From the NCBI GenBank assembly GCA_902785075.1, contig CACZXN010000002.1, forward strand, positions 22,991 to 86,990: 64,000 nucleotides of DNA, read 5' to 3'. Of the stretch, positions 14,779-33,678 are shown piece after piece (positions within the stretch are counted from its first letter, which is position 1; each line of letters starts with the position of its first letter). Origin of the DNA: an uncultured Bacteroidales bacterium. GTDB taxonomy: Bacteria; Bacteroidota; Bacteroidia; Bacteroidales; Bacteroidaceae. The notes beneath the pieces were generated by a model that was not told the DNA's origin, ran no database searches, and saw only the letters and a list, made by a program, of their open reading frames with translations. A program made the translations under genes and the position numbers.

Positions 14779-14786
14779 TATCTTTG
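14779..14786 (+). promoter_or_regulatory. Bacteroidota -7 box TATCTTTG (TAnnTTTG)
   Basis: Exact match to the TAnnTTTG consensus, 22 nt upstream of the ATG at 14808. This shows the ORF-track TTG start at 14784 lies inside the promoter. Confidence 0.55.
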
Positions 14787-14807
14787 CAAATTATAAGAAA
14801 ACGGCTT

Positions 14808-15929
14808 ATGAAGATAGGTTTTGATGCAAAAAGACTATATAATAATTTTACTGGCTTAGGGAATTACAGCCGAACAACAATCGACATACTAACGGAGTAC
14901 GTCCCTCAAAACCAGTATTTATTGTATAGTCCCTCTTTAACAGAGAATCATGTTACGACACCTTATCTTCATCACAAATTGTGCAAAACTATTACACCTT
15001 CTGGTCTTCTGAAGGGAAGTCTTTGGCGAACAGTAGGATTATCTGCCGCTGGTCATCACGATGAAATAGATCTTTTTCATGGACTAAGTAATGAAATACC
15101 ATTTGGCTTATCAAGTCACAATATTCCATCTGTTGTAACAATACATGATGTAGCATTTAAAACTTTTCCTGATATGTACTATTGGCATGATCGCATCATA
15201 TATCATCAAAAGTGGAATTATGCCTGTAAACATGCTAATCGCATTATTGCTATCAGTGAGAGTACAAAGAAAGACATAATACGCTTTTATAATGTACCTG
15301 AAGAAAAAATCAGTGTAGTCTATCAACCTGTCAATCAGACATATTACACGCCAAGTGAAAATATACAGGCCACAGATTTTACTCCTTATATGTTATATGT
15401 AGGTTCTGTTAACTCTCGTAAAAACCTACTTGGAATTGTTCGGGCTATGGAACAAGTCCCTAGTGATTTACAGATTCCATTAACTATCGTTGGTAACGGA
15501 GGAACCTACAAACACAAGGTGGAAGAATATATTGAAATGCATCAAATGACTCATCTGTTTAAATGGGTCTCTGCCATAGATAGTGCTCAATTGCAACAAC
15601 TATATGCAAACGCAGCTGTGTTTCTTTATCCGTCATTTTACGAAGGATTTGGCTTGCCAGTCGTTGAGGCGCTCCTTTCTTGTTGCCCTGTTATCACGAG
15701 CAATATCAGCAGTCTGCCAGAAGCAGGCGGTCCTTCTACCCTTTATGTGAACCCTTATGACGTTGAAGATATTCGCAACAGTATTGTTAACGTACTTACT
15801 GATACTACATTGCGAAACAAGATGACTCACGATGGATACCAATATGCAATGAATAAGTTTCACCCAGAAACATTAGCGCATCAGTTATCGGAAGTGTATA
15901 AAAAGACTATCAATGAATATAACAATTGA
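14808..15929 (+). CDS. glycosyltransferase family 4 (GT-B)
   Basis: C-terminal EGFGLPVVEA (E-x7-E) motif. About 373 aa counted from MKIGFDAKRLYNNFTGLGNY. Confidence 0.8.
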   Translation: MKIGFDAKRLYNNFTGLGNYSRTTIDILTEYVPQNQYLLYSPSLTENHVTTPYLHHKLCKTITPSGLLKGSLWRTVGLSAAGHHDEIDLFHGLSNEIPFGLSSHNIPSVVTIHDVAFKTFPDMYYWHDRIIYHQKWNYACKHANRIIAISESTKKDIIRFYNVPEEKISVVYQPVNQTYYTPSENIQATDFTPYMLYVGSVNSRKNLLGIVRAMEQVPSDLQIPLTIVGNGGTYKHKVEEYIEMHQMTHLFKWVSAIDSAQLQQLYANAAVFLYPSFYEGFGLPVVEALLSCCPVITSNISSLPEAGGPSTLYVNPYDVEDIRNSIVNVLTDTTLRNKMTHDGYQYAMNKFHPETLAHQLSEVYKKTINEYNN

Positions 15930-15946
15930 TAGAAACATCTAAATGA

Positions 15947-17275
15947 ATGTATATAAATGATAATATGGCAAAAAAAGTGTATTTAGGCATGATTGGTGAT
16001 ATCATGCATCCAGGACTAATTAACATCATCAATGAAGGTGCGAAATATGGTGACGTGATTATTGGTCTGTTTACAGACAAAGCAATTGCGAATCATAGGC
16101 GACTACCATACCTCACATGGGAACAGCGCAAAACTGTAATCGAACATATTATAGGAGTATCATCTGTCGTCCCTCAAGATGAGTGGAGTTATGTAGAAAA
16201 CCTAAAGCGGTACAAACCGGATTATATTATTCATGGAGACGACTGGCAATACGGACCTGATAAATATATCCGCGATGAGGTATTCAAAACCATGGAGCGT
16301 CTCGGTGGTGAAGTAATTGAAATACCCTATACAAAAGGAATATCAGATTCTAGTTTGAAAGAAGAGATTGACGCTTTAGGAGTTACCCCACAGGCACGAC
16401 TATCCTCACTTCGACGATTGATTTCTGCCAAACCTGTTGTTCGCATTCTAGAATCCCACAATGGTCTCACAGGTCTTATTGCAGAACATACCTCAGTTGA
16501 AGTCAATGGTCAACATCGTGAATTCGATGGTATGTGGGCTAGTTCTTTAACAGACTCTACATCTAAAGGAAAGCCCGACATCGAAGCAGTTGACCTCACT
16601 ACCCGTCTACACGATTTAAATGACACATTGGAGGTAACAACTAAACCTTTTATCTTCGATGGCGATACTGGTGGAAAAATTGAGCATTTCGGTTTTACAG
16701 TACGAACATTGGAACGCTTGGGTATATCTGCTGTCATTATTGAAGATAAGGTAGGCTTAAAGCAGAATTCACTCTTTGGTACAGATGCTATTCAAACACA
16801 AGACACCATCGAAGGATTTTGTAATAAAATCAAAGCGGGCAAAGAATCTCAGATTACTAGAGACTTTATGATTATTTCTCGTTGTGAATCACTCATTGCA
16901 GGCAAATCCGTGGATGATGCCCTTGAACGTTGCCTCGCTTATGTGGCTGCAGGTGCTGATGGTGTGATGATTCATAGTAAGAACAAAAGTGGAGAAGACA
17001 TTAAAGAGTTCTGCTTGCGTTTCCGTGAGAAGGACCCCCATACGCCTATTGTGGCAGTTCCTACCACCTATAATCAATTCACTGAAGAGGAATTAGCTAC
17101 ATGGGGTATAAACGTTGTCATCTATGCCAATCACATGCTACGTAGCGCCTATCCAGCAATGGTAAAGTGTGCCGAAACCATATTGGAAACCTCTCGCAGT
17201 CTTGAGGCATCTGATAAGTATTGTATGCCTATCAAACAAATATTGAATTTAATTCCAGGAACAAAGAAAAAATAA
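15947..17275 (+). CDS. aepX: phosphoenolpyruvate phosphomutase with N-terminal cytidylyltransferase-like domain
   Basis: PepM signature EDKxxxxxNS present as IIEDKVGLKQNSL. N-terminal roughly 130 aa is a TagD-like nucleotidyltransferase fold (VYLGMIGDIMHPGLINII). Alternative start at 15965 (MAKKVYLG). Confidence 0.85.
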   Translation: MYINDNMAKKVYLGMIGDIMHPGLINIINEGAKYGDVIIGLFTDKAIANHRRLPYLTWEQRKTVIEHIIGVSSVVPQDEWSYVENLKRYKPDYIIHGDDWQYGPDKYIRDEVFKTMERLGGEVIEIPYTKGISDSSLKEEIDALGVTPQARLSSLRRLISAKPVVRILESHNGLTGLIAEHTSVEVNGQHREFDGMWASSLTDSTSKGKPDIEAVDLTTRLHDLNDTLEVTTKPFIFDGDTGGKIEHFGFTVRTLERLGISAVIIEDKVGLKQNSLFGTDAIQTQDTIEGFCNKIKAGKESQITRDFMIISRCESLIAGKSVDDALERCLAYVAAGADGVMIHSKNKSGEDIKEFCLRFREKDPHTPIVAVPTTYNQFTEEELATWGINVVIYANHMLRSAYPAMVKCAETILETSRSLEASDKYCMPIKQILNLIPGTKKK

Positions 17276-17277
17276 AT

Positions 17278-18414
17278 ATGATTAGACCGTCATTCTTTTA
17301 TGATACCCTAAAAAGCTATGGTATAGATTTCTATACAGGTGTCCCAGATTCCCTCTTGAAGAATCTTTGTGCTTATATTACCGATCATGCAGATGCTACC
17401 CATCATGTAATTGCAGCCAATGAGGGTGGTGCTATGGGTTTAGCGGCTGGTCATTATTTAGCCACTAACCACATACCTGTTGTCTATATGCAAAACTCAG
17501 GACAAGGAAACACAATCAATCCACTTGCTTCTTTAACAGATCCTGATGTTTACCACATTCCCGTTCTACTCGTTATCGGTTGGCGAGGAAAGCCCGGTAT
17601 TCACGATGAGCCCCAACATGTAAAACAGGGAAAAGTAACAACAGGGTTGCTCAATTTGATGGGTATTGATTATACAGTTCTCGCGAAGGAAGAAGAAAAG
17701 GCTGCCATACAGATTCAAAAAGCTGTGCAGTATATGCAAAACACCAATAACTGTTATGCTTTGGTGATTGAAAAAGACACATTCGATGCTTATACACTTC
17801 AAAATAGCATTAACAATTCCTTAACTCTTTCACGAGAGGAAGCAATCGAGACAGTCGTAGAAACATTGCAACCCACAGCAACTGTAGTTTCAACAACAGG
17901 CATGATTTCTCGTGAATTATTTGAGATTCGGGAAAAGAGAGCCGAAGGGCACCAATGTGATTTTCTTACGGTAGGTTCTATGGGGCATGCTTCTCAGATC
18001 GCTTTAGGTATTGCTCTGGAAAAGCCAGATCGTCATATTTGGTGCTTTGATGGCGATGGTGCCAGTATCATGCACATGGGTAACATGGCAATTGTAGCAC
18101 AAAAAGCACCTAAGAATTATATACATGTAATTTTTAATAATGGAGCACATGATTCTGTAGGAGGCCAACCAACAGTTGGTCTTTCCATTGATTTTCCTGC
18201 TATTGCAAAAGCAATAGGATACAAGGCTACTTTCTGCGTAAGTGATAAAGAGGAGTTGAAAAAGGCACTCTCGATTATCAATACATCCTCTTCGTCCCTA
18301 GAAGGACCTATTTTCTTAGAGGTTAAAGTTAAAAAGGGTAATAGAAAAGACTTAGGGCGCCCAACAACCACTCCAGAACAGAACAAAGAGGCTCTTATGT
18401 CTTTCTTGAAATAA
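17278..18414 (+). CDS. aepY: phosphonopyruvate decarboxylase (ThDP-dependent)
   Basis: ThDP motif GDGASIMHMGN...NNGAHDS. Lies immediately after PEP mutase, 2-nt gap. The ORF-track start at 17221 overlaps aepX; the ATG at 17278 (MIRPSFFYD) is preferred. Confidence 0.85.
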   Translation: MIRPSFFYDTLKSYGIDFYTGVPDSLLKNLCAYITDHADATHHVIAANEGGAMGLAAGHYLATNHIPVVYMQNSGQGNTINPLASLTDPDVYHIPVLLVIGWRGKPGIHDEPQHVKQGKVTTGLLNLMGIDYTVLAKEEEKAAIQIQKAVQYMQNTNNCYALVIEKDTFDAYTLQNSINNSLTLSREEAIETVVETLQPTATVVSTTGMISRELFEIREKRAEGHQCDFLTVGSMGHASQIALGIALEKPDRHIWCFDGDGASIMHMGNMAIVAQKAPKNYIHVIFNNGAHDSVGGQPTVGLSIDFPAIAKAIGYKATFCVSDKEELKKALSIINTSSSSLEGPIFLEVKVKKGNRKDLGRPTTTPEQNKEALMSFLK

Positions 18415-18444
18415 ATAGTCAACAATCATATTGAAAGCAATAGT

Positions 18445-19167
18445 ATGAAAGTAAAGACGGCTGTAATTATGGCAGCAGGTATGGGAACACGTTTCGGTAA
18501 TATGACCGAAAAGATGCCAAAAGGTTTTATCCCATTTAAAGGCAAACCAATGATAGTACGTAGCATTGAGACATTGATTTCATGTGGGATTGAACGAATC
18601 ATTATTGGTACAGGCTATAAAAAAGAAGCATACGAAGAATTAGCCCAAAGATATACACAAATACAATGTGTATTTTCTCCCCTCTATGCTGAGACAAACA
18701 GCATGTACACACTCTACAATAACAGGGAGGCAATAGGTAATGATGACTTTCTGCTATTAGAGTCTGATTTAGTATTTGAAAAAAAGGCAATTCTTGAGCT
18801 GATTAATTGTCCCTTTTCGTCTGCAATGTTAATTACACCAGTAACTAAATTCCAAGACCAATATTATGTAGAGATGAACAATCGATGTGAACTTATCAAT
18901 TGTTCAACAAACAAAGACAGCATTACACCATCAGGAGAACTTGTTGGTATTCACAAACTTAGTAATAGTTTCTATAAAACTTGCATTTCTGAATATGCAA
19001 AACAATTAATAGAGAAACCAAAGTTAGGTTACGAATATCAATTGCTCTACGTCTCACAGAACATTACTCCAATGCATGTTCTTCGATTAGACTCTCTACA
19101 ATGGTATGAAATCGATGATATAAACGACCTGCGTTATGCAGAACAAAATGTGGAAATCGACTTATGA
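18445..19167 (+). CDS. LicC-like nucleotidyltransferase (candidate AEP/phosphocholine cytidylyltransferase)
   Basis: N-terminal AVIMAAGMGTRFG (GxGTR) NTP-transferase motif. 240 aa. Position directly after aepXY. Confidence 0.7.
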   Translation: MKVKTAVIMAAGMGTRFGNMTEKMPKGFIPFKGKPMIVRSIETLISCGIERIIIGTGYKKEAYEELAQRYTQIQCVFSPLYAETNSMYTLYNNREAIGNDDFLLLESDLVFEKKAILELINCPFSSAMLITPVTKFQDQYYVEMNNRCELINCSTNKDSITPSGELVGIHKLSNSFYKTCISEYAKQLIEKPKLGYEYQLLYVSQNITPMHVLRLDSLQWYEIDDINDLRYAEQNVEIDL

Positions 19168-20117
19168 ACTTACTCTTAGACAAAGATCTCACAGCATGTA
19201 AAGAGATACTACTCCAGTCACTTCAACAGGAAAGCAACCCACTCCTCGGTCAGGTATTGGATTTAGTAAAAACTCGAACAGGTAAGATGATGCGCCCACA
19301 AATGGTGCTGCTGTCAGCAAAACTATTTGGCTCCGTTACTCCTGCAGTTTATGCAGTAGCTGTAGCTTTTGAAGCGCTCCACACCGCCAGTTTGATACAT
19401 GACGATGTTGTGGATGAGAGTGATGAACGTAGGGGTCAAGAGTCTGTCAATTATGCTCAGACCAATCGTGTGGCTATTCTTTCTGGGGATTATATCTTGG
19501 GTGAAGCACTCCGGCTAATTGCCTCTGTTAATGATCCTCGGATTGTACTACTCATGTCAAAAGCTTCAAAAGCATTAGCAGACGGAGAATTGCTGCAACT
19601 TCATACCATTCAGTCAGAAGACTTATCTGAGGCAACTTATATGCATGTTATCACCAACAAAACAGCTGTGCTCTTTGCTTCTTGTGCTGCATCTGGAGCC
19701 ACCCTTGTTGGAGCCACACAAGCTGATATTAATAATATCTATCGATTTGCAGAACAAGTAGGGTTGTGCTTCCAAATAAAAGACGACATTCTGGATTTTG
19801 TTGGTGGTGATATTGGGAAACCCCAAGGAAATGATCTCAAAGAAGGGAAAATTACGCTACCTTTACTCTATGCACTTCAAGGACACGAGCAAGAAATGAA
19901 ACCACTTATTCGCTCTGTAAAGGAGGGCACAACAACTCCAGAGGACATCAGCTATCTTATCAATTTTACACAAGAGAATGGTGGAATTGACTATGCAGAA
20001 TCTGTTATGAACAAAATTGCCAATCAAGCTCGACAACTTCTTGATAAATATCCCGAAAGCCCAGTGAAGGTTGCACTCAACGAATATGTCGACTATGTCA
20101 TTGAACGGAAGAAATAG
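19164..20117 (+). CDS. trans-polyprenyl diphosphate synthase
   Basis: FARM LIHDDVVDESDERRG and SARM KDDILDF motifs. ATGA overlap with the preceding NTase gene. Confidence 0.85.
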   Translation: MNLLLDKDLTACKEILLQSLQQESNPLLGQVLDLVKTRTGKMMRPQMVLLSAKLFGSVTPAVYAVAVAFEALHTASLIHDDVVDESDERRGQESVNYAQTNRVAILSGDYILGEALRLIASVNDPRIVLLMSKASKALADGELLQLHTIQSEDLSEATYMHVITNKTAVLFASCAASGATLVGATQADINNIYRFAEQVGLCFQIKDDILDFVGGDIGKPQGNDLKEGKITLPLLYALQGHEQEMKPLIRSVKEGTTTPEDISYLINFTQENGGIDYAESVMNKIANQARQLLDKYPESPVKVALNEYVDYVIERKK

Positions 20118-22326
20118 CTGTTTATCCCTCCTCCTTTTTACTCTCTCATTCTGTTGTTTTCGGCTTCATGCTCAAGAACCGATGGAATGGGATGATTTTA
20201 TGCGTGACATCTATGAGGAATATATAGAAAGTGACGATGAATTGGGGGAAAATTCTTATGCTACCACACAAGAGGAAGATAATGCAACTGACGCTCTACT
20301 TGAGGAATTATATACACTTCACCTATCACCTATCAATTTAAATGATCTAAGAATTGTAAAGGATGCAGAGGAACAAATGATAAACACAAAAGCACGTCTT
20401 CGACAATTACCTTTTCTTAGCGACCAACAAATCGAGGCAATTGTTTATTACGTCAATAATAACTATCCTATGCAATCATTGGGCGAATTGATGCTTATAC
20501 GAGAACTCGATTACCAGACACGCTCCCGATTGCCTTTGTTCTGTTATGTTGGCGAACCTACCGTTCAAAATAAAGATAATATTCTGAAATTACTACGCTA
20601 TGCAAATCATGAAGTTATCGCTCGTACAACTATTCCTTTTTACACCAAAGATGGTTTCTTGGACAAACCCCAAAACATAATTGACGCTTCTCCAAATAAG
20701 ATTTATCGAGGTAATAACAATTATCATTCGCTTCGTTACCAACTTCGTTCCAGACAGCAAAAGCGGTCAAACGGTATTTCACAACAATTAATCGCAGGTT
20801 TTTCTATAGAAAAAGATGCTGGAGAAGATTATTTCGACTACTTGTCTGGCTATGTAATGATGAATGGTTTAGGGAAAATTCGTACATTAATTATAGGAGA
20901 TTACAAACTAAACTATGGATTAGGTCTGATTGTAAATAACAGTTTTAATCTTGGAAAAAATACCATGGGAGTATTATCGAATGCTCCGATATCTAGACAT
21001 GGTATACGTCCACATGCATCTACAGCAGAATCCAATTACTTTCGAGGCATCGCTATCGATTATTCTCTTTGCAGATCTGCTCATCTTTCAGCATTTGTAT
21101 CATATCACGATATTGATGCCACCAAAGATCAAAATTCTGCTATTCCATCTATCACCTCTCTGAAGACTGATGGTTTACATCGGACTTTGCTTGAAAAAAG
21201 CAAGAAAGGTATTGTTCAAGAGTTATCTGGGGGATGTAATCTTAGTTTTTTCCATCGTGGACTTCAGGTTGAATTGACAGGAATAGCCTCGCACTTCTCT
21301 ATACCGCTTAAACCTAAGTACAATACGCCCGCTACAGAATACCGCAAATATAACTTACAAGGCGATAATTTTGGTTCAATCGGATTATTCTATCGATACA
21401 TGACTAATCGATGGAATCTACAAGGAGAATATGCTGTAAGTTTTTCAAATGCGGAAGACAAAGCAATGAATATAGACCATCCCAATAATGGTTTTGCGTT
21501 TGTCAATAACCTACGTTTCCTTGTAGATAACCAGACATCTTTATCTGCTATCGTCAGGTATTATAATCCCAAATATGCTACTCTATATGGCAAATCCTTC
21601 GGAGAGAATTCTCGTCCGCAGAATGAGTTGGGTCTTTTAGTTGGGATTGCAACAGAACCTTGGACACATTTTCATCTTGAGGCTTATGTTGACGGTTTCA
21701 TATTCCCCAAAAAACGCTATCATGCTGCAGCAGGCTCAAAGGGGATAGATGGGCTATTAAAAATGACTTATTCTCCTAACCAAAAATCTTCATGGCAATT
21801 ACGTTATCGAGTGAAATCCAAGGAACAAGACTGTAAAATTGAGCAAGACAAGACAGAACTGTTTTTTAATACCCGTCAAGACTTGCGGCTTCAATGGAAT
21901 TATAAGCTCAACAACTATCTAACTATTCGCACTACAGGCGGATTTGTATATCGTTGGAATGCAGATAGCAACGATGAAATGGGCTATTTATTCAGTCAAC
22001 ATATACGACACGAACGAACATTGGCTCGCCAAAAAGGAAGACAGCGAATAGACGTGATGCTAGCCTATTTCCATACAGATTCATATGCTGCAAAGGTCTA
22101 CACAACATCTCCTTCACTTCTTTACACATTCGGAATGAACTCCTTATATGGCCAAGGAATCAATGCTGTTGCCATGTTTTCGAGAAGTCTTTCGCGAAAT
22201 CTCTTTGCTATTTGCAAGCTATCAGTTACAAAATACTTCGACCGAAACACAATTGGTACAGGATTGGACATGATAAACGCATCTCATAAAGAAGATATAC
22301 AACTACAATTAAGATGGAAAATATAA
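20095..22326 (+). CDS. helix-hairpin-helix domain / predicted beta-barrel protein, unknown function
   Basis: Signal-like MSLNGRNSCLSLLLFTLSFCCFRLHAQ. ComEA-like HhH segment LRQLPFLSDQQIEAIVYY...LGELMLIRELD. The remaining roughly 550 aa has an alternating beta-strand pattern rich in Y/G/N. The start was chosen downstream of the ORF-track TTG at 20071. Confidence 0.55.
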   Translation: MSLNGRNSCLSLLLFTLSFCCFRLHAQEPMEWDDFMRDIYEEYIESDDELGENSYATTQEEDNATDALLEELYTLHLSPINLNDLRIVKDAEEQMINTKARLRQLPFLSDQQIEAIVYYVNNNYPMQSLGELMLIRELDYQTRSRLPLFCYVGEPTVQNKDNILKLLRYANHEVIARTTIPFYTKDGFLDKPQNIIDASPNKIYRGNNNYHSLRYQLRSRQQKRSNGISQQLIAGFSIEKDAGEDYFDYLSGYVMMNGLGKIRTLIIGDYKLNYGLGLIVNNSFNLGKNTMGVLSNAPISRHGIRPHASTAESNYFRGIAIDYSLCRSAHLSAFVSYHDIDATKDQNSAIPSITSLKTDGLHRTLLEKSKKGIVQELSGGCNLSFFHRGLQVELTGIASHFSIPLKPKYNTPATEYRKYNLQGDNFGSIGLFYRYMTNRWNLQGEYAVSFSNAEDKAMNIDHPNNGFAFVNNLRFLVDNQTSLSAIVRYYNPKYATLYGKSFGENSRPQNELGLLVGIATEPWTHFHLEAYVDGFIFPKKRYHAAAGSKGIDGLLKMTYSPNQKSSWQLRYRVKSKEQDCKIEQDKTELFFNTRQDLRLQWNYKLNNYLTIRTTGGFVYRWNADSNDEMGYLFSQHIRHERTLARQKGRQRIDVMLAYFHTDSYAAKVYTTSPSLLYTFGMNSLYGQGINAVAMFSRSLSRNLFAICKLSVTKYFDRNTIGTGLDMINASHKEDIQLQLRWKI

Positions 22327-22384
22327 GGCATCTAGACCTTGAACTTTGAGACCTTCCGAACAATCACTTTTGGATTCCCATTAA

Positions 22385-22530
22385 TGGAAATTTTTGCAGC
22401 CCCTAGGGGAAAAAGCTTTTTCCCTTAAGGGGAATTTCTGTTGCAGGTCGTGCAACGTACGTTGCAGGTCGTGCAACATAAGTTGCACGACCTGCAACAG
22501 AAAAAACCCCTAGAGGAAATAAAAAAACTT
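22385..22530. repeat. composite palindromic element between convergent genes (17-mer x3 plus chained palindromes)
   Basis: GTTGCAGGTCGTGCAAC at 22441-22457 and 22461-22477. Its reverse complement GTTGCACGACCTGCAAC at 22482-22498. All are separated by 4-bp spacers. Upstream lies CCCCTAGGGG / GGGAAAAAGCTTTTTCCC / CCCTTAAGGG. Confidence 0.85.
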
Positions 22531-22609
22531 CCTTAATAGCGGCAAAAAAAAGGCTAAGGATTAGCGGGAGAAATCATGTTTTAAAAGTCGGGATTTCAAG
22601 CGATAATTC

Positions 22610-23314
22610 TTATTTACCCCTGACTTTACACATGAAATAAGTGAAATATAAACGTGGGAGCAAACGCAACTGGTCGCCAACCTTATCAACCTCCCTAATA
22701 ACACGAATATTATCCATGAGACCCTTGGAGCGATGAACATTGGAGACTCCTTTTACATCATAATCAGTAATCGTAACAGGAATATGGCGGAACGTCTTCC
22801 CTGCTTGGAACAATTGCTTGGACTGCTTGAAATCTGCAGACATCGGATGATTCAGGTCAAATGGATATTCGCGAAGACATTGAGTACGGGTAAACACAGC
22901 TTGATGGCAATAATACATTTTATGGCTGTTGTGTGGCTCTTTCGCTACAATTAAGTTTCCCTTTTTAAGTATATCTCCATAAACGACATCAGCAGTTAAT
23001 CCCTGTGTAATCACATCAGCAAGCACATGAGGGTTAGCAAACGTATCTGCAGCATTGAGAAAGATGCAATAGTCTCCATGAACCATCTCTACCGCTTTAT
23101 TCATTGCATCATAGATGCCTCGATCGGGAGCAGAAGTATAAAATAAAGGAATTGATGGCTTTAGAGTTGCAAGATACTCAGGAGTTCCGTCAGTAGAAGC
23201 ACCATCCACCACAATACACTCCACATCTGGGTAAGTTTGTTCCCAGACACTCTGAAGCGTCCTCTTTAAAGAAGGTAACGCATTGTATGTGACCGTAATG
23301 ACAGAAATGAGCAT
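22610..23314 (-). CDS. glycosyltransferase family 2
   Basis: N-terminal ISVITVTYNALPSLKRTLQSV...VVDGASTDGT, typical of GT2 (GT-A). 234 aa. Confidence 0.8.
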   Translation of the reverse strand: MLISVITVTYNALPSLKRTLQSVWEQTYPDVECIVVDGASTDGTPEYLATLKPSIPLFYTSAPDRGIYDAMNKAVEMVHGDYCIFLNAADTFANPHVLADVITQGLTADVVYGDILKKGNLIVAKEPHNSHKMYYCHQAVFTRTQCLREYPFDLNHPMSADFKQSKQLFQAGKTFRHIPVTITDYDVKGVSNVHRSKGLMDNIRVIREVDKVGDQLRLLPRLYFTYFMCKVRGK

Positions 23315-23332
23315 GTAGTAAGAAGAAGTTGC

Positions 23333-24160
23333 CTATTTGAAAACTCTGGTATCCTGATAGTCATGATACGAATGGTCAAAATCGACATAATCAAACCCAT
23401 GAATACGACGATGGTTTTCAGGCGGTAGCTTCATATAATCGCCAAACAAACATTTCAAATATGTGTCAGGATGCTCCACACCCAACAATTCATGTCCCTC
23501 GAACATGATCGGGGTTGGTGTTCCCATTACCTCGCGTGGCATAGTGCTACGATCACCACTATCATAGTCAGCAATCAGTGGAGCCGTTTCGTAATCGTAG
23601 GCTGTCTGTATGCGTTTTTGTAAACGCTGTAAAGTGATATTTTTAACTGTAGCTTGTAGCAATCGAGGCAACCATGAAGTATAACCATGACCACGTTTAT
23701 ATGGATCTCTGTTACGCAAATACACCCATGTCTTTACCATATGAACCAACCCGATACGTAGCTTACGACGCCATCGCTGAGCAGGAATACCGTCGATAGG
23801 ACAAACATCAATATATACACCACCTATTTGATTGAGCGACCATCGCTCAATGAGTGTTGTACTACCATCAATCACCTTCAGCAGAGCACAACTGCTGTTT
23901 TCGTCTAATTCAAAAGTCTGTAGTTCGAATGGTTTAGGCAACCATTCAGAACCATGCTCAATAAATCGCTGAAAATCTGGGCGAGGCATTGCTATATCAG
24001 CATCATCATCCCAAGGAATAAAGCCTCCATGACGCACAGCTCCTAACATAGTACCATCTGAGAGCCAATAGCGTATGCCATGCTCACGACAAACCTTATC
24101 CACAACTACCAGAATGTTCAAAATACGCTGGTGGATATCTTCTATTTTGTAATTGGCCAT
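23333..24160 (-). CDS. licD: LicD-family phosphotransferase (phosphocholine/phosphonate transferase to glycan)
   Basis: DGTMLGAVRHGGFIPWDDDADIAM, the LicD nucleotidyltransferase-fold motif. 275 aa. Confidence 0.8.
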   Translation of the reverse strand: MANYKIEDIHQRILNILVVVDKVCREHGIRYWLSDGTMLGAVRHGGFIPWDDDADIAMPRPDFQRFIEHGSEWLPKPFELQTFELDENSSCALLKVIDGSTTLIERWSLNQIGGVYIDVCPIDGIPAQRWRRKLRIGLVHMVKTWVYLRNRDPYKRGHGYTSWLPRLLQATVKNITLQRLQKRIQTAYDYETAPLIADYDSGDRSTMPREVMGTPTPIMFEGHELLGVEHPDTYLKCLFGDYMKLPPENHRRIHGFDYVDFDHSYHDYQDTRVFK

Positions 24161-24181
24161 TGTTTTCTCTTATTTTTACTG

Positions 24182-24229
24182 CAAAGATACAACAAAATTT
24201 TGTTCTTTCAATTATTTTTTATAACTTTG
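24182..24229. promoter_or_regulatory. divergent promoter pair (CAAAGATA for licD strand; TAACTTTG for DegT strand)
   Basis: Reverse-complement TAnnTTTG box at 24182-24189, 22 nt upstream of the licD start. Forward TAACTTTG at 24222-24229, 21 nt upstream of the ATG at 24250. Confidence 0.5.
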
Positions 24230-24249
24230 TGGCATAAAAAGGTATTTAT

Positions 24250-25359
24250 ATGATTAGATTATCTAAATCTGTGGTTGGAAAGGCAGAATCAGATGCAGTC
24301 GCGCATGTGATTGAAGACATTGGCTACTTAGGAATGGGAGCCATTGTGGGTGAGTTTGAGCATCAGCTAGAGCAGTATATCGGTGGAAACCGTCGTGCCA
24401 TCTGTGTCAACAGCGGAACAGCAGCATTACATTTATCTATTCAAGCAGTAACCAAACCTGGTGATGAAGTACTGGTACCGTCGTTCACATTTGTGGCAAC
24501 CTATCAAGCCATCAGGGCTGCCGGATGTACACCTGTCAGTTGTGACATTCGCCCAGACACCTTGACGCTCGACCTTAAAGATGCAGAGCGCCGTATCACC
24601 CCTCGCACCACAGCCATGATGCCAGTATACTATGCCAGCAATTGCTGTATGGCCAAAGACTACCAAGCTTTTGCGAAAGAACATGGTTTACGATTAGTAG
24701 AAGATGCTGCCCATAGTTTTGGTTGTACTTGCCAAGGACAGAAAATCGGCTCCTTTGGAGATGTGGTCTGTTTCTCATTCGATGGAATTAAGAACATCAC
24801 AACAGGTGAAGGAGGAGCTATTTTCACAGCAGACGAAGATATCATCCAAAAAGTCAGTGATGCCCGCTTGCTTGGCGTTCAAAAAGACTCTGAGAAACGT
24901 TATGCAGGAAAGCGCAGTTGGAATTTTGATGTTGTGGATCAAGGCTACCGCTATCACATGAGTAACATTTTTGCAGCTATCGGCCAAGTTCAGCTCTCTA
25001 GATTTGAAAAGGAGTTTGCTCCACGCCGTCGTTATATTGCTCAACGCTATTGTGAGTTGCTCAAAGATACTCCTTATGTCAAATTGACACCTATGGATTA
25101 CGAGCACGAAATAGTGCCCCATATCTTTGCTTTGCAAATTCTGGAAGGAAAACGTCCACAATTAGAGCAGTTGTTGAAAGACAATGACATCCAATATGGC
25201 ATACAATATGCCCCAAATCATCATCTCACCCTCTTCCATGAGGATGTAGAACTGCCTGTTACCGATGAGGTTTACTCGCGCATCATTTCCATACCTATGC
25301 ATCCAGAATTAAGCGAGGATGACATTCAACTGATTTGTAAACTAATTAACAGCCTATGA
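24250..25359 (+). CDS. DegT/DnrJ/EryC1/StrS-family PLP-dependent sugar aminotransferase
   Basis: 369 aa. Family blocks GTAALHLS, VPSFTFVAT, FSFDGIKNITTGEGG (Lys in the DGIK context). ATGA overlap with the next gene. Confidence 0.8.
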   Translation: MIRLSKSVVGKAESDAVAHVIEDIGYLGMGAIVGEFEHQLEQYIGGNRRAICVNSGTAALHLSIQAVTKPGDEVLVPSFTFVATYQAIRAAGCTPVSCDIRPDTLTLDLKDAERRITPRTTAMMPVYYASNCCMAKDYQAFAKEHGLRLVEDAAHSFGCTCQGQKIGSFGDVVCFSFDGIKNITTGEGGAIFTADEDIIQKVSDARLLGVQKDSEKRYAGKRSWNFDVVDQGYRYHMSNIFAAIGQVQLSRFEKEFAPRRRYIAQRYCELLKDTPYVKLTPMDYEHEIVPHIFALQILEGKRPQLEQLLKDNDIQYGIQYAPNHHLTLFHEDVELPVTDEVYSRIISIPMHPELSEDDIQLICKLINSL

Positions 25360-26129
25360 AAACAATCATCTTAGCTGGAGGTTTCGGCACTCGCCTATCA
25401 GAATACACAAAACAGATTCCCAAGCCTATGGTAGAGATTGGCGGAAAGCCAATCCTATGGCACATTATGAACCACTACGCCCACTATGGTTACAAGGATT
25501 TTATTGTAGCTTTAGGCTATAAGGGAGAAGTTATCAAGGACTATTTCCTGCAGTATTATGCTCGGAATAATGATTTCACAATCGACTTAAGCAGCGGATC
25601 CATTCATTATATTAATGAACATGCTCGTGACTGGCGAGTGACACTTGTTGACACAGGCGCAGCCTCAATGACAGGTGGACGCGTACTCAGATTAAAAGAT
25701 TACATAGGTCAGGAAGACTTTATGTTGACTTACGGTGATGCAGTCAGTGATGTAAATATAAGTGAACTCGTAAATCGTTATCATCAATCAAATTGTCTGG
25801 CTATGGTGACTGCCGTACACCCAACAGCCCGTTTTGGTGAACTACAAATCGATTCAGAAGACTATGTTCGTTCCTTCAAAGAGAAACCCCAGGTCAATCA
25901 AGGATGGATTAACGGCGGTTTCTTCGTACTCAGTCCTAAAGTGTTTAACTATATTGAAAATGATCTAACCACATTCGAGGCAGAACCTTTGGAGCGCTTG
26001 GCAGTAGAAGGGCAGTTGGTAACATACCGTCATGAAGGTTTCTGGCAATGTATGGATACTGTCCGCGACCGCGATTTGCTGAACAAACTGTGGGACGAGA
26101 ATCGGGCACCTTGGAAACTTTCTGTCTAA
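25356..26129 (+). CDS. rfbF: glucose-1-phosphate cytidylyltransferase-like NTP transferase
   Basis: MKTIILAGGFGTRLSEYT..PKPMVEIGGKPILWHIM. 257 aa, typical RfbF length and N-terminus. Confidence 0.75.
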   Translation: MKTIILAGGFGTRLSEYTKQIPKPMVEIGGKPILWHIMNHYAHYGYKDFIVALGYKGEVIKDYFLQYYARNNDFTIDLSSGSIHYINEHARDWRVTLVDTGAASMTGGRVLRLKDYIGQEDFMLTYGDAVSDVNISELVNRYHQSNCLAMVTAVHPTARFGELQIDSEDYVRSFKEKPQVNQGWINGGFFVLSPKVFNYIENDLTTFEAEPLERLAVEGQLVTYRHEGFWQCMDTVRDRDLLNKLWDENRAPWKLSV

Positions 26130-26166
26130 CTAAGAACGAAATTGATTATTCAAATTAAAACAAAAA

Positions 26167-27255
26167 ATGAATATACTACAAAATGACATCAAACACACGC
26201 TCAATGGTCTCACGACTGCAGAACGTGCTAAATTCAACGGCTCTACTGTACTTATCACAGGTTGTGCTGGTTTTTTAGGTTATTATATGATGCAGTTCTT
26301 TGCTGCCGAATGCGAAGAGTTGGGCATCAAAAAGATTATTGGACTCGATAACTTCATGTTAGGCCAACCAGGATGGATTAAGGAATTGGAGAAGAATCCC
26401 AAAGTAGCCCTACGTAAGTTCGACATCATCAAGGACAACATTGCAGATATAGAAGGAGCATCAGAAGCAGACTTCATCATTCACATGGCTTCAATTGCTT
26501 CACCAATGTTCTACCGCAAATATCCTATTGAGACCTTAGACGCAAACATCTGGGGACTTCGTTCACTACTTGATTACTATTCCACACGTAACATCAAAGG
26601 ATTCTTGTTCTTCTCTTCAAGCGAGTTGTATGGCGACCCCGACCCTGCACATGTACCAACATCTGAGGACTATAATGGAAATGTTTGCGCTACAGGTCCA
26701 AGAGCTTGCTATGACGAGTCTAAACGTTTTGGAGAGACGATGTGCATGCTCTTTGCTCAAAAATACAATATGCCAATCGGCGTAGCACGTCCTTTCAACA
26801 ATTATGGTCCAGGTATGCGTATCGGAGACAAACGAGTCCCTGCAGATTTCGCTTTAGCCATTATGGAGAACAGAGATATCGAGATACTCAGCAATGGAAC
26901 TCCGACACGTACGTTCTGCTATATCGCAGATAGTGTATGCGGTTATTTCAAGATTCTGTTGCATGGGCAATATGACTTCTTCAACATCGGTATCGAAAAA
27001 CCAGAGATTACCATCGCGCAACTGGCAGAGATATATGTTGAGGCAGGACGGGAATTATTCGGATACAAAGGTGAGGTACGCTATGCTGTATCAGAAGACA
27101 AAGAGTATCTCACAAATAATCCTCAACGTAGATGCCCTTGCATCGACAAGGCTCGTAAGTTGTTGGGCTATAACCCCACCATCTTAGTTGATGAGGGTGT
27201 ATCACGTTTCTTGATGTACCTCAAGGAGAGTAACGAAGAAGAATACAAATGGTAG
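26167..27255 (+). CDS. NAD-dependent epimerase/dehydratase (extended SDR; UDP-glucuronate decarboxylase/ArnA-C-like)
   Basis: Rossmann motif ITGCAGFLGYY. Catalytic YDESKR (YxxxK). 362 aa. Confidence 0.7.
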   Translation: MNILQNDIKHTLNGLTTAERAKFNGSTVLITGCAGFLGYYMMQFFAAECEELGIKKIIGLDNFMLGQPGWIKELEKNPKVALRKFDIIKDNIADIEGASEADFIIHMASIASPMFYRKYPIETLDANIWGLRSLLDYYSTRNIKGFLFFSSSELYGDPDPAHVPTSEDYNGNVCATGPRACYDESKRFGETMCMLFAQKYNMPIGVARPFNNYGPGMRIGDKRVPADFALAIMENRDIEILSNGTPTRTFCYIADSVCGYFKILLHGQYDFFNIGIEKPEITIAQLAEIYVEAGRELFGYKGEVRYAVSEDKEYLTNNPQRRCPCIDKARKLLGYNPTILVDEGVSRFLMYLKESNEEEYKW

Positions 27256-27285
27256 AGAAATAGGAAGAAGCAAATCATCAGCAAT

Positions 27286-28545
27286 ATGACAATCACAGTA
27301 TTTGGATTGGGGTTTGTAGGTCTGACCACATCGTTGGGCTTCGCAGAGTATGGACATACAGTCTATGGTGTAGAAATAAATAGCGAGCGATTAGAAACCA
27401 TTAAAGGTGGACGATTGCCTTTTCTTGAACCAGGTCTTGACGAGGTCTTACTTCGTCATCTTGGTAATCGATTCCATCCAATTGGTATAAATGAACTGGA
27501 AAAGGCTGTCAGTCAGAGTGATTGCATCTATTATTGTGTTGGAACACCGTATGGAAAGGACGGACAAGCGGATCTCACCTATCTCTTCAGCGCCCTTGAT
27601 CAAACACTTAACGTGCGGCCCAATAATAAATATCAAGTTTTGGTTGTTAAGTCTACCATTCCCCCATCGACTACTTCACAAAAAATCATTCCATATTTAG
27701 AAGAAAAGGGCCTCAATGTAGGACAAGACTTAGGGGTGGCCAACAACCCAGAATTCTTGCGTGAGGGTCATTGCTGGGATGACTTCATTAAAGCAGACCG
27801 TATAGTCCTTGGTGTTAGTGACGAACGCTCTGCAGAAATGCTTCGTAAGGTATATGCCACCATCCAAGAACCTATACATTGTGTATCATTGAATACTGGT
27901 GAGTTTATCAAGTATTTGTCAAATACACTCCTTGCTACTCTAATCAGCTACAGCAATGAGATGAGCCTTGTAGCAGATACGATTGGTGGCATTGATGTTG
28001 CTGCGGCTTTCCGTATCCTTCATGAAGACAAGAGGTGGGGTGGTGCTACGATGGCAAGTTATGTTTATCCAGGCTGTGGATATGGAGGTTACTGCCTGCC
28101 CAAGGATACCAATGCTCTATATGCTGTAGCTAATACCGCAGGGTTTGACGCGCAAATACTCAAAAATGTCATAAGTATAAATAACCAAATGCCTGCTCAG
28201 ATTGCCCAAAAAGTAGCTAAAATTGTTGGAACAGACAAACAGCGTATCATTGGCATTCTAGGTTTGTCATTTAAACCAGGCAGCGATGACGTACGTGATA
28301 CTCCGTCAGCAAAAATCATTAAACAACTGCGACTATTAGGCTATACCAACATTATTGGATATGACCCCGTAGCCAATGCAGAGTTCGATCGCTATTATTC
28401 AGATTTAGCTATTAGCTATGAGCAGAGTTATGGCGAATTGATTCGAAAAGCAGAAGTATTGGTTATCACCACTGCTTGGCAAGAGTTTGCTAACATCAAA
28501 CAGCTTACTCAAAAGCCTGTTGTAGATTGTCGCTACATGTTATAG
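27286..28545 (+). CDS. nucleotide-sugar 6-dehydrogenase family (UDP-glucose/GDP-mannose dehydrogenase-like)
   Basis: N-terminal ITVFGLGFVGLTTS. Catalytic-Cys context GYGGYCLPKD. 419 aa. Confidence 0.8.
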   Translation: MTITVFGLGFVGLTTSLGFAEYGHTVYGVEINSERLETIKGGRLPFLEPGLDEVLLRHLGNRFHPIGINELEKAVSQSDCIYYCVGTPYGKDGQADLTYLFSALDQTLNVRPNNKYQVLVVKSTIPPSTTSQKIIPYLEEKGLNVGQDLGVANNPEFLREGHCWDDFIKADRIVLGVSDERSAEMLRKVYATIQEPIHCVSLNTGEFIKYLSNTLLATLISYSNEMSLVADTIGGIDVAAAFRILHEDKRWGGATMASYVYPGCGYGGYCLPKDTNALYAVANTAGFDAQILKNVISINNQMPAQIAQKVAKIVGTDKQRIIGILGLSFKPGSDDVRDTPSAKIIKQLRLLGYTNIIGYDPVANAEFDRYYSDLAISYEQSYGELIRKAEVLVITTAWQEFANIKQLTQKPVVDCRYML

Positions 28546-28612
28546 CCCCTATCCATAATTGTATATAGGGCAGAAACTATTCCCAAGTACTTAGGGATGT
28601 GCTGTTATTTCC

Positions 28613-29728
28613 TTATCGAGGAACAGGAATTCCGATTGTCTCAAGGGCTTCTTTAAATACCACAAAGAAGTCTTTGATGTCTTGTGGATATATTTTTCCT
28701 AAGGCGCAGAGTCGGAAGGTATTGGTGGTACTTATCTTACCTGGGTAGATTGTGAATCCTCGCTCGTAACAGTAATCGTGCACCTTTTCAAAACTCCAGT
28801 TTGGATTATCTGGGTATTTTACAGATACCACTAATCCTGACTCGATATTACGATCGATGGCTGTATCCAGTCCCAGTTTGTCCAATCCTTCGTGGATAGC
28901 TTCGTACACAGCTCTATGGCGAGCAAACTTAGCTTCTTCACCTTCTTCGAAGTATTCCTTCAATGCCTGAATCGTAGCATAGATGGTCTGTACAGGAGGA
29001 GTGAAGTGCATTTCACCCGTCTTCTCGAAGTACTCATACTGTAGATAGAGATTGCAATAGTATGATCGAGTGGGATAGTTTTTGCTTGCCTTGATTATAT
29101 CTGTCTTACCAATGATAAAGCTTAATCCCGACATTGCCATTAGACCCTTCTGAGCGGAAGCCATACAGAAATCTACATTATCTTTCACCACATCGAGAGG
29201 AATCATACCCAAAGAGGCAGTTGTATCTGTGATGAAGATGGCTCCATGCTTGTGAGCCAGGTCTCCAATCTCACGAATAGGATTCAGGATGCCTGTACCC
29301 GTTTCGTGATGGCAGCAATACACAACTGCAACATCTGGGTTTTCCTTCAGTGTTTGCTCCACCTTGCTCAAATCGGGTTGTTCATAAACAGAGAACTTGA
29401 GATCGATATGAGGGATGTGGTACATCTGACAAACCTCAACAGCACGAGTATTGTAGGCTCCATTATTGACCACCAGTATTTTCTTTCCTTCAGGTACGAG
29501 AGAGTTGATGCAGACATCAATATTGATTGTACCCGAACCACAGAATAGTACAGAAGTATATTGGTCTGCTGGAGCATGAACTACTTTTAGCAGGTCTGCA
29601 CGCAGACCTTTCATCAGTCCTGCAAACTCTTTCTCACGAGGACAAATATCTGGTACTACTTGCGCCATTTTCACCGTATCTGTTGTGGTGGCGGGACCTG
29701 GATTCAGTAAAACGTTTCGTTTGATCAT
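28613..29728 (-). CDS. phnW: 2-aminoethylphosphonate:pyruvate aminotransferase (class V)
   Basis: LLNPGPATTT N-terminus. PLP-Lys context ASAQKGLMAMSG. 371 aa. It is the only class-V aminotransferase in a window that also encodes aepX/aepY. Confidence 0.75.
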   Translation of the reverse strand: MIKRNVLLNPGPATTTDTVKMAQVVPDICPREKEFAGLMKGLRADLLKVVHAPADQYTSVLFCGSGTINIDVCINSLVPEGKKILVVNNGAYNTRAVEVCQMYHIPHIDLKFSVYEQPDLSKVEQTLKENPDVAVVYCCHHETGTGILNPIREIGDLAHKHGAIFITDTTASLGMIPLDVVKDNVDFCMASAQKGLMAMSGLSFIIGKTDIIKASKNYPTRSYYCNLYLQYEYFEKTGEMHFTPPVQTIYATIQALKEYFEEGEEAKFARHRAVYEAIHEGLDKLGLDTAIDRNIESGLVVSVKYPDNPNWSFEKVHDYCYERGFTIYPGKISTTNTFRLCALGKIYPQDIKDFFVVFKEALETIGIPVPR

Positions 29729-29785
29729 TGCAATTATTTCGTTATTACGTTATATCGGTATTACGTTATTTTATGATGACAGTCA

Positions 29786-33460: not shown

Positions 33461-33606
33461 AATAATTGATTTGTATAAGAAAAAATAATTTGATTGATAT
33501 TCGTCATTTTTCGTTTTAGTGATTCTGCACTTCAATCTCACAAGTTGTTCATCAGATTCAACCGATTACATCAGCACTTTCAATCTTCTGCCTTTCAATT
33601 GGTTTG

Positions 33607-33614
33607 CAAAGTTA
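33607..33614 (-). promoter_or_regulatory. -7 box for paralogue A (TAACTTTG on minus strand)
   Basis: CAAAGTTA on the plus strand, about 150 nt upstream of the start at 33460. The context is conserved with the paralogue B promoter. Confidence 0.5.
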
Positions 33615-33678
33615 CAACTTTTTTGGTTACCCAAACATAATTATTCTTTTTTTTTGCATTTCAGAGTCAAAATATATA

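Follow-up and report, generated by a model that had tools for sequence, protein, structure and literature searches.

A composite locus of a rumen Prevotella-type bacterium that probably combines a 2-aminoethylphosphonate cassette and a CDP-sugar cassette in LicD-type surface-glycan decoration

The Lic1 system, composed of LicC and LicD, places phosphocholine on the lipooligosaccharide of Haemophilus and commensal Neisseria and on pneumococcal teichoic acid. The Arn pathway (Ugd, ArnA, ArnB, ArnC and ArnT) attaches 4-amino-4-deoxy-L-arabinose to lipid A. For 2-aminoethylphosphonate (AEP), the closest described systems are the Pnt clusters of Treponema denticola, Atopobium rimae and Olsenella uli (Rice et al. 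2019, PMC6697681) and the polysaccharide B locus of Bacteroides fragilis, which carries aepX, aepY and aepZ and has a PF01467-fused Ppm (GCF 743; PMC8942020).

The locus described here belongs to a rumen Prevotella-type bacterium and was found in a 64,000-nucleotide stretch of DNA, the whole of which is referred to as the window. Its features are the following:

14808-15929, plus strand: GT4 glycosyltransferase, heading the operon (Pfam PF00534/PF13439)
15947-17275, plus strand: PEP mutase with a fused N-terminal cytidylyltransferase domain (TIGR02320, PF01467)
17278-18414, plus strand: phosphonopyruvate decarboxylase, Ppd/AepY (TIGR03297)
18445-19167, plus strand: LicC-like nucleotidyltransferase, assigned as a PntC-type AEP cytidylyltransferase (PDB 6pd1)
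19164-20117, plus strand: polyprenyl diphosphate synthase (PF00348)
20086-22326, plus strand: signal-peptide protein of 746-751 aa, probable outer-membrane barrel (no Pfam family above cut-off)
22610-23314, minus strand: GT2 (WcaE-like) glycosyltransferase (PF00535, TIGR04009-like)
23333-24160, minus strand: LicD-family phospho-head-group transferase (PF04991)
24161-24249, no strand: divergent LicD/DegT promoter region (-7 box on either strand)
24250-25359, plus strand: ArnB-like sugar 4-aminotransferase of the DegT family (PF01041, PDB 8sng)
25356-26129, plus strand: glucose-1-phosphate cytidylyltransferase, RfbF (TIGR02623)
26167-27255, plus strand: UXS/ArnA-like NDP-glucuronate decarboxylase, SDR (PDB 2b69)
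27286-28545, plus strand: NDP-sugar 6-dehydrogenase (TIGR03026)
28613-29728, minus strand: AEP transaminase, AepZ/PhnW-type (TIGR03301)
29786-31174, minus strand: SNF-family transporter, a flanking core gene outside the system (orthologues occur without pepM)

Every gene that a preliminary description had listed is present at these positions, and the family calls are not due to chance, as the scores are well above the curated cut-offs. The "HhH" label given earlier to the barrel protein proved weak (PF12836, 16.8 bits, E-value 0.0075, below the cut-off). A Bacteroidetes -7 box, tatctttg, is present at 14781-14788, about 20 nt upstream of GT4, and in the 24161-24249 region DegT is preceded by taactttg and LicD by the reverse complement of caaagata. 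The locus is a composite rather than a single pathway. The explanation of the whole that we favor, with a probability of roughly 55%, is that two head-group supply cassettes have been combined in a LicD-type surface-glycan decoration system. The locus most likely makes CMP-AEP as well as a CDP-aminopentose, one or both of which the single LicD would transfer to the GT4/GT2 glycan.

The first cassette provides a full route of AEP synthesis and CTP activation in a glycan-decoration setting, as had been proposed: PepM, Ppd, AepZ and PntC are all present. The PEP mutase domain (residues ~148-442 of the 15947-17275 product) scores 405 bits with TIGR02320 (cut-off 319.6), and the fused protein matches PDB entries 5x3d (E-value 3.8e-43) and 5unc (3.3e-44). 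Ppd scores 513 bits with TIGR03297 (cut-off 312.5). Both signatures reported earlier are in place, that of aepX as EDKVGLKQNS at residue 266 of the PEP mutase and that of aepY as GDG-x24-NN starting at residue 278 of a 397-aa frame. AepZ scores 470 bits with TIGR03301, an AepZ-type model (cut-off 361); its orthologues, 81-88% identical, sit within compact pepM operons of other genomes, and none was found in the five genomes without pepM that were searched. AepZ acts in biosynthesis alongside PepM and Ppd. In the proposed mechanism, the PepM domain would convert PEP to phosphonopyruvate, Ppd would turn this into phosphonoacetaldehyde and AepZ would produce AEP, from which the stand-alone PntC and CTP would give CMP-AEP.

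The Pnt clusters share with the window a Ppm-nucleotidyltransferase fusion, Ppd, an AEP transaminase and a separate PntC making CMP-AEP, with LicD-like transferases and glycosyltransferases nearby. However, in the window the fused domain, of the PF01467 family, carries HPGL at the HxGH position, AepZ and PntC are separate proteins, housekeeping genes interrupt the cluster and the LicD is from a different, CDP-sugar-linked clade. The polysaccharide B locus, also of Bacteroidales and with its AEP on a surface glycan, has the PF01467-Ppm fusion, Ppd and an AEP transaminase in common with the window. In contrast to that locus, the comparative context here points to a small GT4/LicD decoration system and to lipopolysaccharide-core genes, and no capsule flippase (Wzx), polymerase (Wzy) or export/regulatory family was detected by Pfam/NCBIfam in the 20 genes of 9137-35606, two of which (31310-35606) matched no family. 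The AEP part is of a published, ordinary design, and it is the LicD-linked CDP-sugar cassette that constitutes the new lead.

This second cassette comprises DegT, RfbF, the SDR and the dehydrogenase. DegT matches PF01041 with an E-value of 1e-92 and has ArnB (8sng, 1.8e-55) as its best PDB match, its stop overlaps the RfbF start by 4 nt, and RfbF scores 367 bits with TIGR02623 (cut-off 300). The best PDB match of the SDR is a UDP-glucuronate decarboxylase (2b69, 8e-46), and the dehydrogenase scores 359 bits with TIGR03026 at the subfamily level. The CDP-glucose 4,6-dehydratase model gives just 4e-11 for the SDR, and the dehydrogenase stays far under the cut-offs of the UDP-glucose dehydrogenase equivalog models. 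Most likely, RfbF, the dehydrogenase, the UXS-like SDR and the ArnB-like DegT would lead from Glc-1-P through CDP-glucose, CDP-glucuronate and CDP-4-keto-pentose to CDP-4-amino-4-deoxypentose, with CDP rather than UDP as the probable carrier past CDP-glucose.

The dehydrogenase, decarboxylase and 4-aminotransferase logic of this cassette is that of the Arn pathway, as are its best PDB matches (UXS/ArnA and ArnB) and the lipid A/core genes that neighbor it in related genomes. Unlike Arn, the cassette begins with a CDP-glucose synthase, has RfbF as an integral member and LicD as its only transferase; formyltransferase, ArnC and ArnT were all absent among the scanned genes of the window. The cassette is widespread in pepM-less Bacteroidales, often near lipopolysaccharide-core genes, a context that derives from other genomes and not from the window itself: 21 loci have a WaaP-like kinase at most 8 kb away, 9 have LpxL/M, 7 MsbA and 5 GT9, and just 3 related loci have a PMT_2/ArnT-like gene close by. 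Of the 67 fetched loci with a true SDR match (L042-L108), 61 also hold RfbF. LicD lies within the cassette in 50 of these 61, and pepM genes occur in only 3-4. A literature search found no published description of the chemistry of this CDP-sugar/LicD cassette.

The locus has a single LicD (23333-24160, "type A"), which matches PF04991 with 139 bits (E-value 2.8e-40) and carries its acidic DxD motif as WDDDAD at residues 50-55. The earlier view of this protein as the AEP cassette's own transferase is not supported by its relatives. Orthologues with 77-88% identity stand divergently upstream of DegT in pepM-less loci, a PepM match is absent from four of the five genomes that carry them, and the window LicD nests in the type-A clade (SH-aLRT 100), which is tied to the DegT-RfbF-SDR-dehydrogenase cassette. 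It falls outside the group of AEP-cassette LicDs, and a transferase dedicated to CMP-AEP was not found in the locus. All other LicDs examined adjoin their own CDP-donor genes (LicD-CT, a TarI-like gene or an NTase::PLP fusion), the second LicD of the window's genome being paired with a TarI-like gene.

A contiguous GT4-PepM-Ppd-PntC-AepZ-LicD cluster exists in three sister species, with GT2 next in two of them, and further genomes share this compact layout. GT2 accompanies the AEP cassette there, as LicD-GT2 after AepZ in G016/L155 (GT2 identity 59%) and L182 (50%); here it lies downstream of LicD. GT4, a single-copy orthologue found in 17 of the 24 genus genomes, heads three alternative cassettes: LicD-CT, the compact AEP clusters and, in L056, the CDP-sugar cassette. 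The split layout is limited to the window's genome and four sister species (L110-L114). We propose that the single LicD would have arrived with the second cassette and that the AEP cassette's own LicD would have been lost in this lineage. LicD would then move the phosphono or phospho head group, with release of CMP, onto a glycan made by the conserved GT4 and GT2. Since members of its clade function in genomes lacking AEP, use of CMP-AEP by the window LicD is our assumption. It is based on there being no other candidate and on six substitutions specific to this LicD lineage, which include the otherwise invariant Y63 and F93 and represent one inherited event. AEP genes are intact and an AEP-type LicD is absent in a 94% complete genome (G018); the window's genome is 85.5% complete, and an AEP-type LicD could sit in its unassembled part.

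The best surviving alternative, which we consider unlikely, is that LicD serves the CDP-sugar cassette alone and moves aminopentose-1-phosphate to the lipopolysaccharide core, with CMP-AEP being used by a different, unrecognized transferase or by a LicD in the unassembled part of the genome. To our knowledge, LicD takes its head groups from CDP-alcohols and CMP-AEP-like compounds, and no LicD is known to use a CDP-sugar. In addition, all five split-layout species keep their AEP genes intact with no other transferase nearby, and the GT2 that trails the AEP-type LicD in compact clusters trails the window LicD too. These points have to be weighed against the agreement of LicD clades with cassette type, which places the window LicD in type A, and against the orthologues that work in genomes without detected PepM. 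The alternative also gains from genome G002, which has no other candidate cytidylyltransferase, and from the commonest cassette layout, DegT-RfbF-LicD-SDR-DH, in which LicD is the only transferase.

The window alone does not reveal the acceptor, as the preliminary description had it; judging from gene context in related genomes, it may be the lipopolysaccharide core. In this the system may resemble Lic1, where LicD likewise transfers a CTP-activated zwitterionic head group to a surface glycan. The differences from Lic1 are that LicA and LicB are missing, that the head groups would be made de novo (AEP and probably aminopentose phosphate) and that its PntC has a Glu where LicC has an Asp. Tentatively, and with more doubt than confidence, we suggest that the Bacteroidales cassette and its near-constant LicD form an undescribed route, in which CDP-glucose is converted via CDP-glucuronate to CDP-4-amino-4-deoxypentose and the sugar-1-phosphate is placed on the lipopolysaccharide core, and that this route has here been merged with the AEP cassette, the transferase being shared.

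Two cytidylyltransferase modules had been claimed for the locus, and both are present, but the fused one (residues ~10-141, Fom1-type) lacks the second His of the HxGH motif, and the pairing of a fused with a stand-alone enzyme is not distinctive, as this combination has already been published (PMC6697681). The fused domain scores 41 bits with PF01467 (cut-off 21). In Fom1 of fosfomycin biosynthesis (PDB 5x3d) the same domain is N-terminal to the PEP mutase, and the second signature (RTEGIST type) is kept in both as a YTxGIS motif (YTKGIS here, YTPGIS in Fom1). However, HPGH of Fom1 is HPGL here (residues 21-24), and the locus is without a gene for hydroxyethylphosphonate synthesis. HPGL is found in 8/8 genus orthologues and 71/80 related loci; HxGH is kept in 109 of 150 family representatives. 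Both HxGH histidines are described as critical for catalysis (PMC6060094). Hence, the fused domain is probably catalytically weakened or repurposed, and AEP activation probably falls to PntC. The stand-alone LicC-fold enzyme is, as judged from its sequence, a PntC-type AEP cytidylyltransferase: its best PDB match is Tde1415 PntC (6pd1, 7.6e-40, full length), LicC (1jyk) matches at only 1.1e-16 and over the N-terminal half, and Glu104 and Glu196, which bind the AEP amine in Tde-PntC, have aligned counterparts in its Glu106 and Glu197.

It is improbable that cytidylylation of AEP or hydroxyethylphosphonate is instead the work of the fused domain, with the stand-alone enzyme activating another substrate. 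Such a role would fit the ~60% identity of the domain to the active Fom1 CyTase domain and its strong conservation (75-94% identity across 80 related loci, Fibrobacter included), from which it follows that the domain has some role; the fused mutase occurs very commonly in rumen Prevotella and Fibrobacter. The Leu in place of the second His and the kinship of the stand-alone enzyme with an experimentally proven AEP-specific PntC, whose AEP-binding Glu residues it retains, argue otherwise, as does the lack of a phosphonoacetaldehyde reductase gene, needed for hydroxyethylphosphonate, in Pfam/NCBIfam scans of the locus.

The genes from aepY to aepZ had also been read as one pathway. In this integrated form, everything from GT4 to AepZ would be dedicated to it, with the polyprenyl product as a lipid carrier and the barrel as an exporter, a model that is now highly improbable because synteny already contradicts it. 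The 4-nt overlap of the PntC stop with the start of the co-directional polyprenyl synthase is in its favor. However, barrel-protein orthologues adjoin the polyprenyl synthase in 5/5 genus genomes, three without pepM and two with pepM on another contig; in pepM-less genomes the two belong to a DUF711-PPS-CN_hydrolase-barrel operon. The pair is missing from the compact AEP clusters, and the synthase is the sole close copy in the window's genome. Synthase and barrel protein alike are housekeeping passengers outside the phosphonate system, and the split layout is a rearrangement.

A catabolic AepZ (PhnW) that, together with the neighboring SNF transporter, would serve the uptake and breakdown of AEP from rumen ciliates is hardly tenable: AepZ does lie 57 bp downstream of the transporter on the same strand with no -7 box visible between them, but SNF orthologues (77-81%) exist in six pepM-less genus genomes, AepZ being absent from the five of these that were searched, its model is AepZ-type and its orthologues elsewhere are inside biosynthetic operons, and the window's genome gave no phosphonatase match above the cut-off.

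AEP, formerly a marker of rumen protozoa, occurs in rumen bacteria too, according to Ling and Buttery (1978) as cited in PMC4659874, and the AEP genes of this locus provide a genetic basis for that old finding. The analysis also singles out the widespread CDP-sugar/LicD cassette near lipopolysaccharide-core genes. If our reading of this cassette is true, it would add a new donor class to LicD and a cytoplasmic alternative to Arn/ArnT for envelope aminopentose phosphate. Zwitterionic and cationic envelope decorations influence antimicrobial-peptide resistance, phage adsorption and host recognition. LicD subfamilies sit beside their own CDP-donor cassettes, and one GT4 is combined with interchangeable cassettes; this pairing yields a rule by which the surface head groups of gut and rumen Bacteroidales may be predicted.

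A combined ORF listing and Pfam/NCBIfam scan of the window, which comes from a Prevotella-type Bacteroidales bacterium of the rumen, recovered every gene named in the preliminary description. Both signatures reported there were also found, EDKxxxxxNS as EDKVGLKQNS and GDG...NN as GDG-x24-NN. The HhH label of the barrel protein was the sole sub-threshold call among the named genes.

Genes of the locus (window positions; strand, where listed; assignment)
14808-15929, forward: GT4
15947-17275: PF01467 cytidylyltransferase domain fused to PEP mutase, PepM (TIGR02320, 405 bits, cut-off 319.6)
17278-18414: phosphonopyruvate decarboxylase, Ppd (TIGR03297, 513 bits)
18445-19167: LicC-fold nucleotidyltransferase, PntC
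19164-20117: polyprenyl synthase, 4-nt overlap with PntC
20086-22326: signal-peptide protein of ~750 aa (barrel protein), HhH match sub-threshold
22610-23314, reverse: GT2
23333-24160, reverse: LicD
24250-25359: DegT aminotransferase, ArnB the best solved relative
25356-26129: RfbF (TIGR02623, 367 bits, cut-off 300)
26167-27255: UXS/ArnA-like SDR
27286-28545: NDP-sugar dehydrogenase
28613-29728, reverse: AepZ-type transaminase (TIGR03301, 470 bits)

Bacteroidetes -7 boxes (TAnnTTTG) are present upstream of GT4, DegT and, on the opposite strand, LicD. The barrel gene and GT2 converge on a 283-bp spacer (22327-22609) that contains a palindromic 17-mer element, probably a bidirectional terminator.

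The AEP route is an ordinary example of a design that is already published (PMC6697681). About 60% of PEP mutases carry a fused nucleotidyltransferase, with PF01467 fusions at 23.6%; a fused and a separate nucleotidyltransferase can share one cluster, CMP-AEP is the product of PntC enzymes, and glycosyltransferases and LicD-like transferases are found near such clusters (Rice et al., PMC6697681). A PF01467 fusion is also listed for Bacteroides fragilis (PMC8942020). The stand-alone enzyme of the window is matched over its full length by the T. denticola PntC structure 6pd1 with an E-value of 7.6e-40, whereas LicC matches only its N-terminal half, at 1.1e-16, and both Glu residues contacting the amine of AEP are kept. 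We consider AepZ to be biosynthetic because its orthologues elsewhere sit within pepM operons, it was not found in five pepM-less genomes that retain the neighbouring SNF transporter, and no phosphonatase reached the cut-off in the window's genome. The SNF transporter was ruled out as an AEP importer, because orthologues of it are retained where AepZ or pepM is missing and because of the lack of a phosphonatase. No -7 box is visible in the SNF-AepZ spacer (29729-29785), so AepZ may be transcribed by read-through from SNF. The same spacer contains a direct repeat (cgttattacgttat...cggtattacgttatt).

Both of the proposed nucleotidyl-activation modules are present, but the fused one appears to be weakened or repurposed. 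Its domain is ~60% identical to the CyTase domain of Fom1 (5x3d, E-value 3.8e-43), and where Fom1 has HPGH the window reads HPGL. HPGL occurs in all eight genus orthologues of the fused mutase and in 71 of 80 related loci, the others reading HPGY (7), HHGY (1) and HPGH (1). HxGH is the motif in 109 of 150 representatives drawn from the wider domain family; 10 read HxGL and 5 HxGI, and most of the HxGL and HxGI representatives belong to the window's closest relatives. HPGL thus replaces a motif in which both histidines are reported to be catalytically critical across the superfamily (PMC6060094), and we infer that the enzyme activating AEP is PntC. Four 50%-identity representatives (P0134, P0140, P0142 and P0148) are full-length fusions of PF01467 to a mutase fold that lack EDKxxxxxNS, the defining motif of PEP mutase; P0134 also reads HPGI.

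Fused PEP mutases 85–89% identical to that of the window (15947-17275 protein as query) are carried by many Fibrobacter MAGs and by others labelled as Thermoguttaceae, Deltaproteobacteria and Clostridia, in contigs of up to ~470 kb (loci L134-L148, L153, L154, L159, L160 and L167). The Ppd of these loci reaches only 63–70% identity. This pattern suggests that the cassette has been exchanged among rumen bacteria of different phyla. Cultured carriers of the fused mutase include Prevotella sp. ne3005, Prevotellaceae bacterium HUN156 and Bacteroides intestinalis AF14-32.

LicD had been placed in the AEP pathway, but both its clade and its gene order tie it to the CDP-sugar genes. With the SDR as query, 68 loci were fetched, 67 of them true matches; RfbF and the SDR occur together in 61 of the 67, and LicD lies inside the cassette in 50 of those 61. 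The usual order is DegT-RfbF-LicD-SDR-dehydrogenase (type B), and in some loci LicD is divergent and upstream of DegT, as in the window (type A); this division was made partly by identity to the window's LicD, and gene order agrees with it. Among these loci, pepM genes are nearby only in the window's sister species. Type-A orthologues are 77–88% identical to the window's LicD, and in four of the five genomes that have them PepM was not found anywhere. A tree of 79 sequences places the window's LicD within type A, a clade with SH-aLRT 100. Single clades are also recovered for type B (99) and for the LicDs of GT4-LicD-cytidylyltransferase operons (100), and the LicDs of AEP cassettes stand apart from these clades. 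By its ancestry, then, the window's LicD is assigned to the CDP-sugar cassette.

In this lineage, no AEP-type LicD was found in five species in which AepZ lies apart from PepM-Ppd-PntC and the AEP genes are intact; in one of the genomes, G018 (94% complete), the only LicDs are one of type A and, on another contig, a distant one (32%). Type-A LicD possibly accepts CMP-AEP as well as the CDP-sugar, or accepts it in place of the CDP-sugar, or else a different transferase handles CMP-AEP. LicD of the window's lineage carries six fixed substitutions (Y63F, K85L, C89S, S91C, F93L and K250H), none of which is ever seen in type-A LicDs of pepM-less genomes; across the other 65 LicDs compared, Y63 never varies and F93 is kept in all but one. 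The six represent a single inherited event, and we treat them only as a lead.

Other LicDs examined adjoin their own cytidylyl-donor genes. The second LicD of the window's genome (contig C16; L191, 5329-8032) is divergent from an IspD/TarI-like cytidylyltransferase and an SDR, and the module looks like a CDP-ribitol-type head-group module. With these partners it is unlikely to be the AEP transferase, the more so as LicDs of similar (32–36%) identity occur in pepM-less genomes. In a pepM-less Prevotella (L196, 4513-8187), LicD stands together with an octopine-dehydrogenase-family gene and a fusion of a LicC-like nucleotidyltransferase to a PLP aminotransferase, a putative "opine-type head-group" module. 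Such fusions, having their own LicD and octopine-dehydrogenase-type partner, were ruled out as the donor source for type A. Genome G002 has a CDP-sugar cassette with embedded LicD, and neither pepM nor a LicC-like or TagD-like cytidylyltransferase was found in it.

Of 24 genus genomes, 17 have a single copy of the GT4 that heads the locus. In eight pepM-less genomes this GT4 heads a three-gene operon with LicD and a stand-alone 134-aa PF01467 cytidylyltransferase (L029-L037, e.g. L036, 5469-7904), whose surroundings are unrelated housekeeping genes that say nothing about the acceptor. Where AEP clusters are compact, the GT4 stands at the head of their AEP cassette. An orthologue at 60% identity leads DegT-RfbF-LicD-SDR-dehydrogenase in L056, where LicD, GT4, a WaaP-like kinase and a sulfatase-family gene come next, and in G002 the GT4 is alone, LicD and the cytidylyltransferase having been deleted. 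Gene order thus argues for one GT4 with interchangeable cassettes.

The fused mutase is present in 8 of 25 genus genomes. Three of them (G014, G016 and G023) have a contiguous GT4-PepM-Ppd-PntC-AepZ-LicD run, followed in G016 by GT2, and the layout recurs in further genomes of the 80-locus survey. The split form is limited to L110-L114 (the window's genome plus four sister species) and is best read as a local rearrangement: a DegT-to-dehydrogenase cassette would have inserted between AepZ and LicD of an AepZ-LicD-GT2 ancestor, and inversion of the whole block would have produced the present order. The preliminary interpretation is partly supported: it stands for the AEP route and fails for the polyprenyl synthase and barrel protein, which it had counted as pathway members. 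Each of the five genus genomes examined has this pair, and in the three without pepM it lies in a DUF711-synthase-CN-hydrolase-barrel operon. Since the window's genome also has no other close polyprenyl synthase, the two are passengers despite the overlap with PntC; synteny likewise rules out a carrier role for the synthase and an exporter role for the barrel protein. In pepM-less genomes (L019, 12582-17912) the CN-hydrolase gene lies between the pair and DUF711 ahead of it; in the window's lineage (19164-22326 of the window) both are absent from this position, and the end of the synthase gene overlaps the start of the barrel gene. Conservation across the composite is uneven. DNA identity to sister species L011-L014 (window 14808-31174) is 71–73% for GT4-PntC, 62–64% for the barrel gene and 82–86% for DegT-SNF. 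A recent exchange of the LicD-to-SNF block is weakly indicated by 82–86% against 71–73% in the left block, which stronger constraint would explain equally.

The closest solved relatives of the SDR are UDP-glucuronate decarboxylases (2b69, E-value 8e-46) and that of DegT is ArnB (1.8e-55); the dehydrogenase has a subfamily-level match only. RfbF matches CDP-glucose synthase at equivalog level and forms an integral part of the cassette, including Firmicutes versions without LicD. From these matches the route would run from CDP-glucose through CDP-glucuronate and a CDP-4-keto-pentose to a CDP-4-aminopentose. A literature search for CDP-glucuronate or CDP-xylose intermediates returned nothing relevant and no open paper. 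Carriers of the DegT-RfbF-(LicD)-SDR-dehydrogenase cassette (L047-L108, query 26167-27255) include Prevotella, Bacteroides, Muribaculaceae, Odoribacter and Parabacteroides, and LicD-less versions are present in Lachnospiraceae, Clostridia and Selenomonadales. Frequent neighbours of the cassette are WaaP-like kinase, LpxL/M, MsbA, GT9 and EptA-like genes.

The acceptor had been described as not readable from the sequence, and the window indeed gives no clue. Within 8 kb of the CDP-sugar cassette in other genomes, a WaaP-like kinase occurs in 21 loci, a second GT4 in 19, a Sulfatase/EptA-like gene in 11, an LpxL/M-like gene in 9, MsbA in 7 and GT9 in 5. Because of these neighbours, the other genomes point to the lipopolysaccharide core as the acceptor, by analogy with phosphocholine on Haemophilus lipooligosaccharide. 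Two features appear to be new here, the combination with a LicD-linked CDP-sugar cassette and the HxG(L) fused domain, and they would set this locus apart from the published AEP design.
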